From Escherichia coli (GTDB lineage: Bacteria > Pseudomonadota > Gammaproteobacteria > Enterobacterales > Enterobacteriaceae), in assembly GCF_044647545.1 (NCBI RefSeq), contig NZ_CP172818.1: a stretch of DNA of 64,000 nucleotides. The stretch is one strand, 5' to 3'. The position numbers were made by a program. Of the stretch, positions 1 to 12,000 are shown piece after piece; positions within the stretch are counted from its first letter, which is position 1; each line of letters opens with the position of its first letter.

Positions 1-3000
1 AATAACCCGCTCGGCTTCTGGGTCAGCTCCGCAATGGCGGGGGCGTATGTGGGTCTTGGGATCATCCTGATTTTCACGCTCGGTAATTTGCTCGACCCGT
101 CCGTACGTCCTCTGGTGATGGGCGCGACCTTTGGTATCGCCTTAACGCTGGTCATTATTGCTGGTTCTGAACTGTTCACCGGACACACCATGTTCCTCAC
201 CTTTGGAGTGAAAGCGGGCACTATCAGCCACGGGCAAATGTGGGCAATCCTGCCGCAAACCTGGCTGGGTAACCTGGTTGGTTCCGTCTTTGTTGCCATG
301 CTCTATAGCTGGGGCGGCGGTAGCCTGCTGCCGGTAGATACCAGCATCGTTCACTCCGTCGCGCTGGCTAAAACCACTGCACCGGCAATGGTACTGTTCT
401 TCAAAGGTGCATTGTGTAACTGGCTGGTTTGCCTGGCTATCTGGATGGCGCTGCGCACTGAAGGGGCGGCGAAATTTATCGCTATCTGGTGGTGTCTGCT
501 GGCATTTATCGCGTCCGGCTACGAGCACTCCATCGCGAACATGACGCTGTTCGCCCTCTCCTGGTTTGGCAACCACAGCGAAGCCTACACGCTGGCGGGT
601 ATTGGTCATAACCTGCTGTGGGTGACGCTGGGTAATACTTTATCAGGTGCCGTATTCATGGGATTGGGTTATTGGTATGCTACGCCGAAAGCGAATCGTC
701 CGGTTGCGGACAAATTTAATCAAACTGAAACAGCTGCCGGTTAATTACTAAGGGGTTTTTACGTGGATCATTTGCCTATATTTTGCCAATTACGCGATCG
801 CGACTGTCTGATTGTCGGCGGTGGTGATGTCGCGGAACGCAAAGCAAGGTTGCTGTTAGACGCAGGCGCTCGCTTAACGGTGAATGCATTAGCGTTTATT
901 CCACAGTTCACCGCATGGGCAGATGCAGGCATGTTAACCCTCGTCGAAGGGCCATTTGATGAAAGCCTTCTCGACACCTGCTGGCTGGCGATTGCAGCGA
1001 CAGATGATGACGCGCTTAACCAGCGCGTCAGTGAAGCCGCTGAAGCTCGTCGCATCTTCTGTAACGTGGTCGATGCGCCGAAAGCCGCCAGCTTTATTAT
1101 GCCGTCAATTATTGACCGCTCACCGCTCATGGTCGCGGTCTCCTCTGGCGGCACCTCTCCGGTTCTGGCACGCCTGTTGCGTGAAAAACTTGAATCACTG
1201 CTGCCGTTGCATCTGGGCCAGGTAGCGAAATACGCCGGGCAATTACGCGGTCGAGTGAAACAACAGTTCGCCACAATGGGTGAACGTCGCCGTTTCTGGG
1301 AAAAACTGTTCGTTAATGACCGTCTGGCGCAGTCGCTGGCAAACAACGATCAGAAAGCCATTACTGAAACGACCGAACAATTAATCAACGAACCGCTCGA
1401 CCATCGCGGTGAAGTGGTGCTGGTTGGCGCAGGTCCGGGCGATGCCGGGCTGCTGACACTGAAAGGACTGCAACAAATTCAGCAGGCAGATGTGGTGGTC
1501 TACGACCGTCTGGTTTCTGACGATATTATGAATCTGGTACGCCGCGATGCTGATCGCGTTTTCGTCGGCAAACGCGCGGGATACCACTGCGTACCGCAGG
1601 AAGAGATTAACCAGATCCTGCTGCGGGAAGCGCAAAAAGGCAAACGCGTGGTGCGACTGAAAGGCGGCGATCCGTTTATTTTTGGCCGTGGTGGCGAAGA
1701 GCTGGAAACACTGTGCAATGCAGGCATTCCGTTCTCGGTGGTTCCGGGTATTACCGCAGCTTCTGGTTGCTCTGCCTATTCGGGTATTCCGCTCACGCAT
1801 CGCGATTATGCCCAGAGCGTACGCTTAATTACCGGACACTTAAAAACCGGTGGCAAACTGGACTGGGAAAACCTGGCGGCAGAAAAACAGACGCTGGTGT
1901 TCTATATGGGGTTGAATCAGGCCGCGACTATTCAGCAAAAGCTGATTGAACACGGTATGCCTGGCGAAATGCCGGTGGCAATTGTCGAAAACGGAACGGC
2001 AGTCACGCAGCGCGTGATTGACGGTACGCTCACGCAGCTGGGCGAACTGGCGCAGCAAATGAACAGTCCATCGCTAATTATTATTGGTCGGGTTGTTGGC
2101 CTGCGCGATAAATTGAACTGGTTCTCTAACCATTAATTTAACCAGGGCCAGAGAATTCTGGCCTTTTTCGTTTACAACTCTCTTTATATATTCAGCAGAT
2201 AAAAATACCCCCCTTAATAAATATTATCTGCTAATGGGTTATATTCACCGTTACAGCGACTTACAAAATTAAGTCATTCGTTCACTGACGCCAATTAAAT
2301 ATTCCTGTATCATTCTTAATGAGCAGTCTGCTTATATTCATATAATCAATGAATATTAATCAATATATAATACATAGGGAATGTAAATGAACAAATTTAT
2401 TAAAGTTGCACTGGTAGGTGCGGTACTGGCTACGTTAACTGCATGTACTGGTCATATTGAAAACCGTGATAAGAACTGCTCTTACGACTACCTGCTGCAC
2501 CCAGCTATTTCTATTTCTAAAATCATTGGCGGTTGCGGTCCTACTGCACAGTAAGTCTCTGACAGAAATTGGCTGATGCTGATTTATTGCCTGCGCCCTC
2601 GGGTTTCCGGGGTCCAGAATTAAACGTCGGCAATACTCTCGCGCAAAATCCGCAATACCGTCTCTTCACCGCTGCGATTTGGGTTAATACGAATCGCGTA
2701 ATGTTCGAGTTGCGGATTCGCCTGGCGAAACGTTCCGGAAAGTCGATAAAAAAGTGGCGGAATTTCATATTTCGACTCCGCGCCCACCGGATACGGCAAC
2801 GCGCCGCGTTTCTGCGCCTCCTCCAGCACCCTGGCGGCAATCGGCTGATGAAACTCGACAATCAACACCTTCGACTGTGCATTGGCAATGACGGCGCTTT
2901 TCACTTCCGGAACTGCACCACCGTTGAGCAAGGCCAGCAACCGCTCAGATACCCCCGCCTGCACCGCGTGCATCACTGGCGCAAACACCAGCCCACGCAA

Positions 3001-9000: not shown

Positions 9001-12000
9001 GGCAGATGGAACTCTGTTTCCAGTACGTTGACGACCTGCATCATGCCTTTGCAGATGTCCTTATCAATAACGCCTGCCTCGCAAAGCAGGTTGAGTCTGG
9101 TTTCCATTTCAGATGCCTTTCATTTAATAACTGGGTTCCTGTTCCCCACTCACCACTCGTTGTTGATGGGCAAGCAGGGCCTGTTTATCAACCACTGCAC
9201 GCAGCAGTTGTTGCATTGGGTAATCATCGACTCGCGTCAGGACCACGGCTTCGGTGGCCTGTAAAAATCGCGGATCGTCTGTGAGCGGCGTCGCTTCTAA
9301 TCCCAGCATGGTCAGTTCGTTTTCCGCCACCACGTTCCAGATCACCGCATCGACATCGCCTTTAACAATGCGTTGTAAACTCTCGTGATAAGAGAGATCG
9401 ACACGTTCCACATCACTATCGCCAAAAAAGACATCGGTCATGATTTTCTGATCCGCCGAACGGTTATCCAGCCCCACGCGCTTCACGTTTGCGGACTCGC
9501 CTTTACGGCAAATCAACTGGTGCTCGCCAACGTAGGTGTGCGGCCCCAACTCCAGCGCGAGGCATAAGCCTTTTTGCGTGAGATAACTTTCCGCCGCCAG
9601 TCGGGAAACAACCGCCATGTCATACACGCCGTTAAGTAAACACTCCACGCGAATATCCGCGCCGCGCATATGCGCATAGTAAAAAGGAATACCATCAAAC
9701 TGAGCTTTCAATCCGCTCGCCAGGCCTTCGTACAAACGGGTATAGGGCAAGGGCATCGCGCACACCACATTGTTGATATCTACATGAGTCAGCAATGCTT
9801 TGTTATCCATCTCGACCAGATAACTGCCATTGCGCCCACGGCGTTCAATCCGTATCGCTCCGCTTGATTCCAGCGTTTTCAACGCGGCCTGCGTCAGGCC
9901 AACCGATGAACGGCATTCAGTTGCCAGCTCATCTATGGTTTTCAGTCGATTACCGCACTTTTCACCCAACAAATAACGGGCCAGTGTCGTGATAACGACG
10001 CCTTCTTTTTTGATAAACGTTCGACGCATAATATATTTTCAATAAAATGAATGTTTATATCTTCATTAAAATGAAGATAAGTGGCAACTGTGAGATGTGG
10101 AAACGGCGAGGTGCTTCACATTTTTTCGGATTATTGCAAATGAGGATAAAAAAACCGGGTTTCCCCGGTTTTTGGCATTAATGTTAAATTACGGCTTCGC
10201 CACAAAACCAATCGCTTCGTACACCGCTTTCAGCGTACGAGAAGCGTGTGCACTGGCTTTTTCCGCGCCGTCTTTCATCACCTGTTGCAGGAAGGCTTCA
10301 TCGTTGCGGAAACGGTGATAACGTTCCTGCAATTCAGTCAGCATACCGGAAACGGCATCAGCCACTTCGCCTTTGAGATGACCATACATCTTGCCTTCGA
10401 ACTGTTTTTCCAGTTCCGGGATGCTCTGGCCCGTTACCGCAGAAAGGATATCCAGCAGGTTGGAAACGCCCGCTTTGTTCTGCACATCGTAGCGAACTAC
10501 CGGCGGCTCGTCGGAGTCAGTGACCGCACGTTTGATTTTCTTCACTACCGATTTCGGATCTTCCAGCAGGCCGATAACGTTATTGCGGTTATCGTCAGAC
10601 TTGGACATCTTTTTGGTCGGCTCCAGCAGCGACATTACGCGCGCGCCGGATTTCGGAATAAACGGCTCCGGCACTTTAAAGATCTCGCCATACAGCGCGT
10701 TGAAACGCTGGGCGATATCGCGGCTCAGTTCCAGGTGCTGTTTCTGGTCTTCACCCACCGGTACCAGATTAGTTTGATACAGCAGGATGTCCGCAGCCAT
10801 CAGCACCGGATAGTCAAACAGACCAGCATTGATGTTCTCGGCATAACGCGCAGATTTATCTTTAAACTGCGTCATGCGGCTCAGTTCGCCGAAGTAGGTA
10901 TAGCAGTTCAGTGCCCAGCCTAACTGTGCATGTTCCGGCACGTGGGACTGAACAAAAATGGTGCTTTTCTCAGGATCGATACCACAAGCCAGATACAAGG
11001 CCAGCGTATCCAGCGTCGCTTTACGCAGCTTCTGTGCATCCTGGCGCACGGTGATCGCGTGTTGGTCAACGATACAGTAAATGCAATGGTAGTCATCCTG
11101 CATGTTTACCCACTGACGCAGCGCACCCATGTAGTTACCAATGGTCAATTCACCTGAGGGCTGTGCGCCACTAAAAACGATGGGCTTAGTCATTTTTCGA
11201 TTCCTGATTTTCGCTATGCGGAAGCCCTAATGCGGGCAGAAGGTCATTTATAGACTGATAAATTACATCAGGCTGGCTGAGATCGATAGCCTCGCCGTAG
11301 TTATATCCGTAGGTTAAGCCAACTGATGGGCAACCTGCCGCTTTTGCTGCCTGAATATCATTGCGTGAGTCGCCAACAAACAGCATCTGTTGTGGAGCAA
11401 TTCCCATCCGCTCAGCCACCAGTAACAGCGGGTCCGGATGCGGTTTTTTGTTTTGCACATCATCACCACCAATTACCACGCTGAAGTATTTGGCGATATC
11501 TAAGGCTTCGAGCAGCGGCGCGACGAACGGCGTCGGTTTGTTGGTGACCAGACCTAGCGGCAGGCCTTTAGCCTGCAATGCGCCCAGCGTATCGGCAACG
11601 TGCGGGAACAAAAACGTCCCCTCTTCGGCAACCTCGCCATAGTAGCGATCGAACAGTTTACGCAGAATACGTACTTGTTCTTCTGCCGGAATGTCGTCAT
11701 CAACGGGCGGTTTACCCATTGTTTTACGCAGAGTCGCACGTTCCTGACGCGCCCAGGTCAATGCGCGCTCCATCAGAACATCTGCGCCGTTACCAATCCA
11801 GGTTATAACGCGTTCTTCACCTGCGACGGGCAACTCCAGCGCATACAGCGCCATATCTACTGCGGTAGCCAAGCCAGGAGCACTGTCCACCAGCGTACCG
11901 TCGAGATCAAAAGCGACGCCGCGAATATCTTCAAACTTATTCATGACTTACCTTTGCCAGTTCACTGCGCATTTCATCAATGACTTTTTTGTAGTCTGGC

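Follow-up and report, generated by a model that had tools for sequence, protein, structure and literature searches.

In the D-glucosaminate (dga) pathway of Salmonella, encoded by dgaABCDEF, and in the 'EF_0829' cluster of Enterococcus and Aeromonas, a sugar-type uptake step is followed by a pyridoxal phosphate (PLP) enzyme that treats the phosphate of an amino-sugar acid as an amino acid. A comparable combination is proposed here for a 64,000-nt stretch of the Escherichia coli chromosome (contig NZ_CP172818.1 of assembly GCF_044647545.1; hereafter the window), where eight genes, yhfS, yhfT, yhfU, php, yhfW, yhfX, yhfY and yhfZ, lie side by side on the minus strand. These genes constitute a real, conserved functional module whose arrangement is far beyond chance, and two of their products, YhfU and YhfT, are best explained as an uptake system of the phosphotransferase system (PTS) type.

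In Enterococcus, a DgaE-type lyase of PLP fold type I is encoded together with uncharacterized DUF4310, DUF4311, DUF4312 and SFCGS genes (PMC11934601). The EF_0829 cluster comprises SFCGS, DUF4312, DUF4311, DUF4310, an amidohydrolase, the DgaE lyase and a KDGP aldolase. Like the yhf cluster, its Enterococcus version codes for a small Cys/Gly-rich protein, uncharacterized membrane proteins and an amidohydrolase-superfamily enzyme (PMC11934601), and YhfY weakly matches the EF_0829 family of stand-alone PRD proteins. YhfU, YhfT and YhfS, however, match none of the NCBIfam models of the EF_0829/dga systems, and the yhf cluster lacks an aldolase, carrying instead a phosphomutase and a PLP enzyme of fold type III.

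A second relative is the Pseudoalteromonas pathway for oxidized chitin (GlcNAc1A), built from OngB, OngC and KdgK, in which OngC, a D-glucosaminate deaminase of PLP fold type III, acts after an amidohydrolase-superfamily deacetylase (PMC9537276). YhfX is likewise a fold-type III enzyme and Php likewise belongs to the amidohydrolase superfamily. The Ong pathway differs in that its substrates are unphosphorylated before deamination, uptake proceeds through an SSS symporter and a kinase is present; moreover, YhfX forms its own clade by family profile.

All eight products are still listed as 'putative' or 'uncharacterized' in the K-12 RefSeq record, and a full-text literature search returned no functional study of the eight genes and no mention of DUF2620, the family of YhfU. 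The statement of an earlier, sequence-only reading of this DNA that no substrate had been assigned therefore holds in RefSeq and in the literature searched. The search did return uninformative passing mentions, among them a Keio-collection screen hit and a description of yhfW as a 'putative mutase in lycopene synthesis'. Php was crystallized in the late 1990s. Structures are now available for YhfS (4J8L), YhfX (4KBX), Php (1BF6/4LEF) and the C-terminal domain of YhfZ (2OZZ), all deposited as uncharacterized, hypothetical or 'homology protein'. The genes themselves are thus known and annotated; what is new here is a candidate YhfZ operator with a two-unit layout, evidence for an undescribed type of PTS-coupled uptake, and a narrower hypothesis about the substrate.

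The eight-gene module and its conservation

The window is about 99.9% identical to E. coli chromosomes such as that of FDAARGOS_497, in which RefSeq annotates the same eight genes. The eight co-directional open reading frames called at 2620–10029 were borne out in coordinates and strand, as follows.

yhfS, 2620–3705, minus strand: fold-type I PLP enzyme with a YhfS-like_C domain; accessory member of the cluster
yhfT, 3717–5021, minus strand: polytopic membrane protein, PF10797; proposed EIIC-like translocator
yhfU, 5033–5386, minus strand: DUF2620, small RpiB-fold protein; proposed EIIB-like phospho-carrier and partner of YhfT
php, 5397–6275, minus strand: phosphotriesterase-family amidohydrolase; proposed ring-opening hydrolase (lactonase/esterase) acting on a phosphorylated intermediate
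yhfW, 6272–7498, minus strand: phosphomutase of the alkaline-phosphatase superfamily, a relative of phosphopentomutase
yhfX, 7498–8661, minus strand: PLP enzyme of fold type III (alanine-racemase fold); proposed to act on the amino-acid-like end of the substrate, as a racemase/epimerase or a D-specific ammonia-lyase
yhfY, 8745–9107, minus strand: stand-alone PRD-domain protein; proposed sensor of the PTS phosphorylation state
yhfZ, 9124–10029, minus strand: winged-helix regulator of the GntR type carrying a ligand-binding YhfZ_C domain; probably represses the cluster

The start of yhfU is placed at the ATG at 5386 (117 aa), as backed by RefSeq and by the family alignment; an automatic call had run to a GTG at 5425. 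Both of the overlaps claimed earlier can be read in the sequence, the php start overlapping the yhfW stop in an ATGA and the yhfW start overlapping the yhfX stop by 1 nt in a TAATG. The remaining intergenic gaps measure 10–16 nt, except for the 83 nt between yhfY and yhfX. The product list drawn up in the sequence-only reading agrees with the domain assignments and can be refined at two points: the small protein YhfY is a PRD protein, and the regulator-like YhfZ combines a GntR-type winged helix with YhfZ_C.

The cluster region is covered to at least 80% in 5058 of 5426 complete E. coli genomes (93%). Beyond this species the families are small, with 305 representative YhfT clusters among 1.84 billion proteins and DUF2620 in 273 of about 100,000 species genomes. 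When the eight proteins were mapped onto 90 retrieved loci and 42 metagenome loci (cited below by L numbers), relatives of the cluster emerged in Vibrionaceae, Yersinia, Fusobacteria (Sebaldella) and low-GC, high-GC and spirochaete-like contigs, at 25–50% protein identity. The genome-context comparison proposed in the sequence-only reading thus found the cluster conserved in Enterobacteriaceae and across several phyla. Gene order is Z-Y-X-W-php-U-T-S in Enterobacteriaceae and Z-Y-php-U-T-X-W in Vibrionaceae, and the variants on low-GC contigs include a second YhfT, a protein with the amidase signature or a Cof-type phosphatase. The core comprises Z, Y, php, U, T, X and W; yhfS is accessory, being present in Enterobacteriaceae, Sebaldella and the low-GC, high-GC and spirochaete-like contigs and missing from the versions in Vibrionaceae and Yersinia. 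Apart from three loci, yhfU stands immediately upstream of yhfT wherever either gene was found, an order kept even where most of the enzyme genes are missing (L094, L095). That the same genes come together again in varied orders in different phyla is what one classically expects of a shared pathway.

We give next to no credence to the contrary explanation that the genes adjoin by descent only, without a common pathway, or that the cluster is an inactive remnant. The genes do appear silent or uncharacterized in the laboratory literature, and in Yersinia (L042–L051, L055) yhfW has been lost in most species, leaving a gap of 70–250 nt between yhfX and php, while yhfS occurs in none. In addition, yhfZ is reported to be truncated in all Y. 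pestis genomes compared (PMC12445494), and decay of the cluster seems to be under way in Yersinia. Against a remnant stand the differing gene orders just described, the intact reading frames with overlapping stops and starts, the conserved catalytic residues and operator-like site, and the coverage among E. coli genomes.

Several loci depart from the common arrangement. Two yhfU-yhfT loci occur in some genomes of Enterovibrio and Photobacterium, where the gene content is split into Z-php-U-T and U-T-X-W (L054/L081, L058/L059, L060/L077, L061/L062), and in P. lipolyticum two clusters lie about 13 kb apart. One of the three unpaired loci, on a high-GC contig (L106 1–3157), has yhfX-yhfU and no yhfT; directly after yhfU come a GntR/UTRA regulator and, in convergent orientation, a gene for Enzyme I.

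YhfU, YhfT and a probable link to the phosphotransferase system

In at least five YhfT clades, ptsH and/or ptsI, the genes for HPr and Enzyme I (EI) of the PTS, lie inside or beside the yhf genes. Among contigs of 68–73% GC, the order is yhfW-HPr-yhfU-yhfT-yhfS-yhfZ in L098, of the high-GC group, and yhfX-yhfU-yhfT-HPr-EI-GntR in L094, and in L096/L097 a PRD-HPr-EI run lies beside two yhfS-like genes and an operon with yhfU-yhfT at its end. At about 73–76% GC, L093 and L106 carry an EI gene convergent with the cluster. At about 48% GC, L115, L121, L122 and L125 have the order PRD-(yhfZ)-php-yhfS-yhfX-yhfW-HPr-EI, divergent from yhfU-yhfT; a flagellar-collar gene adjoining one of these contigs suggests that they come from spirochaetes. 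The HPr and EI proteins exceed their NCBIfam cutoffs or come close to them, HPr scoring 63–78 bits against a cutoff of 47.9, and EI 343 bits against 341.7. Given the number of clades and the several arrangements, the association is not a single inherited accident. The family is itself confined to PTS-bearing lineages. By gene neighbourhood, YhfU/YhfT would be functionally coupled to EI and HPr.

The two proteins also share features with the known PTS Enzyme II families (Glc, Fru, Lac, Gut, Gat, Man, Asc), namely adjacent HPr and EI genes, a PRD regulator, and the pairing of a small cytoplasmic protein that has an invariant Cys in a Gly-rich loop (YhfU) with a polytopic membrane partner (YhfT, PF10797). 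In the family alignment of YhfU this loop reads G-x-C52-x-T/S-G-x-G. The structure model of YhfU is RpiB-like, with ribose-5-phosphate isomerase B as the closest fold. Family-level membership of the RpiB/LacAB isomerases is not supported, fold alone being in agreement: YhfU falls below the threshold of Pfam LacAB_rpiB (E 0.16), the hhalign alignment is limited to 26 columns surrounding the Cys loop, and at 117 aa against 149 aa for RpiB the protein is 32 residues shorter and lacks the C-terminal third. Unlike these isomerases, YhfU nearly always has a membrane protein as its partner. A classic EIIB finds no support in the fold ranking either, and the Cys of YhfU follows strand 3, that of EIIB strand 1.

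YhfY, a core member, matches Pfam PRD at an E value of 4e-4, besides its weak match to the EF_0829 PRD family. His48-x6-Arg55 is invariant in 20 diverse homologues, whereas the second usual PRD His is Asn108 in YhfY, so that one phosphorylatable site is retained. The protein thus has the PRD fold with a conserved His, and contains no RNA- or DNA-binding domain; it may signal the phosphorylation state of the PTS to the YhfZ switch.

No version of the cluster encodes a kinase, although a phosphomutase-type enzyme is present (in L096, a His_Phos_1 mutase/phosphatase takes the place of yhfW). Uptake through a PTS, with concomitant phosphorylation, would explain a phosphomutase in a kinase-less cluster. 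Added to this are the ptsH/ptsI genes embedded among the yhf genes, the PRD protein of the core, Cys52 as an invariant residue of YhfU, and confinement to PTS-bearing lineages; taken together, they make PTS-type uptake by YhfU/YhfT the best explanation, and one we regard as reasonably probable from the genomic contexts and structure models. The sequence-only reading had proposed uptake in general terms; most likely this uptake is of the PTS type with phosphorylation by YhfU/YhfT, which that reading had not seen. YhfT would be the membrane translocator and YhfU its phospho-carrier, the phosphate passing from EI to HPr, to Cys52 of YhfU and on to the incoming substrate, without an EIIA.

The same structure models would also serve a system without a PTS, in which YhfT works by ordinary ion-coupled secondary transport and YhfU, co-translated with it by chance, is a small isomerase of the RpiB type for sugars or sugar phosphates; the phosphate handled by YhfW would then come from a kinase encoded elsewhere, or the nutrient would be imported already as a phosphoester. 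This we consider improbable. It leaves unexplained the ptsH and/or ptsI genes in or beside the yhf operons, the PRD protein and the near-constant yhfU-yhfT pairing, each of which PTS-type uptake alone explains, and YhfU lacks the C-terminal third of RpiB and fails the LacAB_rpiB threshold.

Two further observations concern YhfT. A distant homologue (about 24–26% identity; L010 10001–11978) is encoded immediately ahead of an MTA/SAH nucleosidase (192 bits), with neither DUF2620 nor any other yhf gene, which suggests that what one branch of the family transports is formed by such a nucleosidase, for instance methylthioribose, S-ribosylhomocysteine or adenine. A short amidase-signature protein of 314–343 aa is encoded alongside YhfT in loci of the low-GC group and of Fusobacteria (L004 6060–7004; L090 11748–12779), and in Clostridium citroniae an amidase-signature protein is fused to YhfT (768 aa; AFDB G5HJH7), suggesting that amide hydrolysis is coupled to transport in these lineages.

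YhfZ, a candidate operator and the borders of the cluster

YhfZ scores 373.5 bits with the NCBIfam model YhfZ_full (cutoff 260). In profile searches its N-terminal region matches the FadR/GntR winged-helix domain at 1.7e-4, and its C-terminal domain, the subject of PDB 2OZZ, gave no other strong match and hence no clue to a ligand. With a winged helix, an effector domain and a co-occurring conserved palindrome, it has the features predicted of a GntR-family regulator. Three copies of the palindrome are found.

O1, 10059–10078, no strand assigned: operator-like palindrome ATCTTCATTAAAATGAAGAT, core TTCA-N6-TGAA; centre 39 nt before the yhfZ ATG; kept in other genera
O2, 10035–10054, no strand assigned: operator-like palindrome, core TTCA-ATAAAA-TGAA; centre 15 nt before the yhfZ ATG; kept in other genera
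O3, 8693–8712, no strand assigned: operator-like palindrome ATATTCAAAAAAATGAATAT in the 83-nt yhfY-yhfX gap; perfect motif match; conserved before yhfX across Enterobacteriaceae
trpS intrinsic terminator, 10150–10173, minus strand: AAAAACCGGG-N4-CCCGGTTTTT; upstream boundary of the cluster

The pattern ATWTTCA-N6-TGAAKAT picks out these three sites and no other with at most one mismatch in the 64-kb window; as it was derived from O1–O3 themselves, its informative part is the absence elsewhere, along with the comparison across loci. In that comparison 70 loci have at least 150 nt ahead of yhfZ, and 59 of them carry an exact TTCA-N6-TGAA in those 150 nt, with centres 15–19 nt and 39 nt before the start codon. 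Its density is 7.85 per kb upstream of yhfZ as against 0.073 per kb in the remaining 1.5 Mb examined, a difference of about 100-fold, and it also precedes yhfZ in Vibrionaceae, in Sebaldella and on one low-GC metagenome contig. As the motif accompanies the regulator gene across phyla, the simplest reading is that TTCA-N6-TGAA is the operator of YhfZ itself, and this is probably so. YhfZ would bind two copies overlapping the promoter/start region of its own gene and one before yhfX.

Since operator-like sites stand before both yhfZ and yhfX, the cluster is probably made up of two co-regulated transcription units with a common operator motif, an autoregulated yhfZY and, in parallel, yhfXW-php-UTS. 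The eight-gene cluster described in the sequence-only reading is real, and a simple single operon gives way to the prediction of two units. The AT-rich, repeat-bearing region noted there before yhfZ is also present: the stretch from the trpS terminator to the yhfZ ATG (115 nt) has a GC content of 31%, against 53% for the cluster, and contains a 20-nt direct repeat with its copies 24 nt apart and a palindrome inside each.

The yhfZ gene is without a Shine-Dalgarno sequence. The 20 nt upstream of its ATG read CATTTTATTGAAAATATATT, and the proximal operator-like site ends 5 nt from the ATG (window 10027–10050); the yhfZ mRNA may be leaderless or dependent on the AT-rich leader. The whole trpS-yhfZ intergenic region (window 10030–10188) measures 159 nt here and 289 nt in K-12 (L091 16346–16634). 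In K-12, yhfZ has been listed among genes with an upstream bacterial interspersed mosaic element (BIME) repeat, a possible attenuator (PMC2965389), and the extra K-12 DNA is probably this repeat, which has no counterpart in the present strain.

Outside the cluster, the order in the window is nirC-cysG-yhfL on the plus strand and then, after the eight genes, trpS, gph, rpe and dam on the minus strand. The Enterobacteriaceae neighbours trpS, gph, rpe, dam, cysG and nir were rejected as a functional clue, for they reflect a conserved chromosomal position. In K-12, yhfL and yhfS are separated by the fructoselysine operon frlABCDR (L091 3449–8936); this operon is absent from the present strain, in which yhfL and yhfS are convergent neighbours (window 2137–2620) only 61 nt apart. 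The corresponding gap is 106 nt in FDAARGOS_497, which accounts for an alignment indel of about 41 nt relative to that genome. Rfam gave no match at E ≤ 1 in 2100–10300, and the PADLOC models of anti-phage defence matched none of the eight proteins.

Enzymes and the candidate substrate

YhfS is a fold-type I PLP protein with a C-terminal domain of its own, distant from the Cys/Met gamma-lyases and from the class V families. Php is near-identical to PDB 1BF6/4LEF (the latter a phosphate-bound structure), and its 650.6 bits with NCBIfam NF007373 (cutoff 486), together with the solved binuclear-metal TIM-barrel structure, place it in the phosphotriesterase family. Within that family, organophosphate hydrolase (OPH) and phospho-furanose lactonase are equally distant from it, each with a score of about 100 bits. 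It thus shares a family (cog1735-type amidohydrolases) with the phosphorylated sugar lactonases (NCBIfam NF045706; Lmo2620-type), but scores only 97 bits against their cutoff of 630 and is as near to OPH.

YhfW matches the Bacillus cereus phosphopentomutase 3M8W at 1e-30 and retains the metal ligands and nucleophile in conserved motifs (D10-S11, G-D-T84-x-x-G-H88, D338-H-G-N-D-P and H-T-R-E), whereas its cap, at about residues 100–235, is divergent. It falls below the DeoB cutoffs (TIGR01696, 144.8 against 341.2; NF003766, 181.7 against 256) and passes only its own model, PRK12383, which is not known to have an experimental basis. In YhfX the PLP lysine, K61, and at least 50 other columns are invariant. 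Apart from a strong match to its own structure, its family profile finds weak relatives only, alanine racemase at 1e-4, D-3-hydroxyaspartate aldolase at 0.014 and D-threonine aldolase at 0.024, which sets it in a clade of its own; its identification as an alanine or ornithine racemase finds no support, the Orr model giving 35 bits against a cutoff of 480 and alanine racemase no better than 1e-4. From these assignments, Php would open a ring in, or de-esterify, a phosphorylated compound, YhfW would shift the phosphate of that compound, and YhfX, joined in enteric bacteria by YhfS, would handle an alpha-amino-acid-like end by racemization or epimerization and elimination of ammonia.

Sugar-phosphate enzymes (a hydrolase of the lactonase type and a phosphomutase) beside PLP enzymes of the amino-acid type would be explained by a compound combining the features of a sugar with those of an alpha-amino acid. 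OngC and the DgaE-type lyases offer precedents for such chemistry. Accessory genes in other lineages bear on its identity. In about a third of Vibrionaceae loci, the cluster adjoins, in varying arrangements, a Lac/Cel-family PTS, a porin and a secreted protein of about 730 aa, the C-terminus of which resembles, as judged by eye, a chitin-binding motif. In Vibrio comitans (L071 1953–9655), nagB (411 bits; cutoff 237) is embedded between yhfW and yhfU. The operon of L096 that holds yhfU-yhfT also codes for a class III aminotransferase and a Gfo/Idh/MocA oxidoreductase, and recurrent accessory hydrolases include the amidase-signature protein of Sebaldella and low-GC contigs and a class-C beta-lactamase-fold hydrolase in spirochaete-like contigs. 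An amino sugar derivative, for example a 2-amino-2-deoxy-aldonate, its lactone or its N-acyl form, is our candidate; the proposal is the weakest step of the argument, and we think it doubtful in its specifics even as the leading one. The N-acyl form may be the substrate in lineages with an added amidase. Catabolism of a modified amino or phospho sugar or of a lactone-like nutrient, as suggested in the sequence-only reading, is consistent with this evidence and would so far be a deduction from protein families and gene context.

Two details of the Vibrionaceae loci may be added. The Lac/Cel-family PTS genes (EIIB, EIIC and EIIA) are always followed by a gene for a 296-aa DUF7916 protein, and this four-gene module lies beside the yhf-like cluster in several orientations:

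Lac/Cel PTS-DUF7916 module: L063 3504–6392 and L085 4620–7515; also in L057, L061, L062, L064, L080 and L082

In V. comitans L071, an arylsulfatase-family gene and an anaerobic sulfatase maturase lie upstream of the cluster, which hints at a sulfated amino sugar as the source in this species.

The main alternative substrate is a pentose or ribosyl compound, either a 5-substituted ribose (S-ribosylhomocysteine, methylthioribose) or a ribonolactone derivative, for which YhfW would be a genuine phosphomutase of pentoses, YhfU would isomerize a pentose and YhfS would be a gamma-lyase acting on a homocysteine-like moiety. The nearest relatives of the proteins accord with it: phosphopentomutase for YhfW, ribose-5-phosphate isomerase B for YhfU and, among characterized enzymes, Met gamma-lyase and O-succinylhomoserine sulfhydrylase for YhfS, to which can be added the distant YhfT next to a nucleosidase gene and the weak match of Php to phospho-furanose lactonase. 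Every one of these similarity scores, however, is only superfamily-level; YhfW lies under the DeoB cutoffs with a divergent substrate-binding cap, many versions of the cluster are without YhfS, and the accessory genes (nagB, the Lac/Cel PTS, the chitin-binding-like C-terminus, the aminotransferase with the Gfo/Idh/MocA oxidoreductase) favour amino sugars. A ribosyl substrate accordingly seems unlikely to us.

Far less likely still is a glycation (Amadori) product related to fructoselysine. The idea draws on the position of frlABCDR between yhfL and yhfS in K-12, and an RpiB-like isomerase could in principle serve as a deglycase. PTS uptake of Amadori compounds is known in other bacteria (the gfr system) and was counted in its favour. 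But frl is missing from the window while the yhf cluster is intact, none of the other genera examined shows the adjacency, which was for these reasons rejected as a functional clue, and the cluster contains neither a SIS-type deglycase nor a kinase.

Joined together, module, regulation by YhfZ, PTS-type uptake, catabolism and an amino-sugar-type substrate make up our best explanation of the cluster, and a number of points weigh against it. The structure model of YhfT has no structural neighbour in the PDB and no likeness to known EIIC folds, and its assignment as EIIC of a known PTS superfamily was rejected on this comparison. None of the loci examined has an EIIA gene within the yhf run, Lac-family EIIA genes occurring near the cluster only in some Vibrionaceae as part of a complete, separate PTS, and known Cys-type EIIB proteins require EIIA; the relay would therefore have to run from EI through HPr and YhfU to the substrate. 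A role for a phosphomutase after PTS phosphorylation fits no known PTS pathway, whether the substrate is an amino sugar or a ribosyl compound. Neighbouring genes that point to amino sugars occur in no more than about a third of Vibrionaceae loci, and E. coli has none. Finally, a promoter/terminator scan found promoter-like sites no commoner than in shuffled sequence, and no promoter is claimed, so that the case for two promoters consists of the operator-like sites and the 83-nt gap. Weighing these points, we hold the explanation as a whole tentatively, at a level just short of an even chance.

With YhfT unlike EIIC, and YhfU, of RpiB-type topology, unlike EIIB, the system, if it is a PTS, lies outside every known Enzyme II family. 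It is conceivable, though we lean slightly further from this more specific claim, that YhfU/YhfT represent a new PTS Enzyme II superfamily, with a novel translocator fold and an RpiB-fold carrier charged by HPr without EIIA, feeding an undescribed pathway for an amino-sugar acid or its lactone.

Among the E. coli K-12 genes that still lack a function, the cluster makes up one of the larger blocks, and four of its proteins have crystal structures. Because it is near-universal in E. coli and occurs also in Vibrio, Fusobacteria and low-GC, high-GC and spirochaete-like, possibly termite-gut, contigs, its nutrient is probably common in guts and marine habitats. If YhfU/YhfT are indeed a PTS permease, they would add a new type of Enzyme II to a transport system thought to be well catalogued. 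Were the larger proposal true, a kinase-less cluster bearing a phosphomutase would be explained, the question of its substrate would become experimentally approachable, and Php would gain a physiological role in a pathway usable by E. coli and by many gut and marine bacteria.

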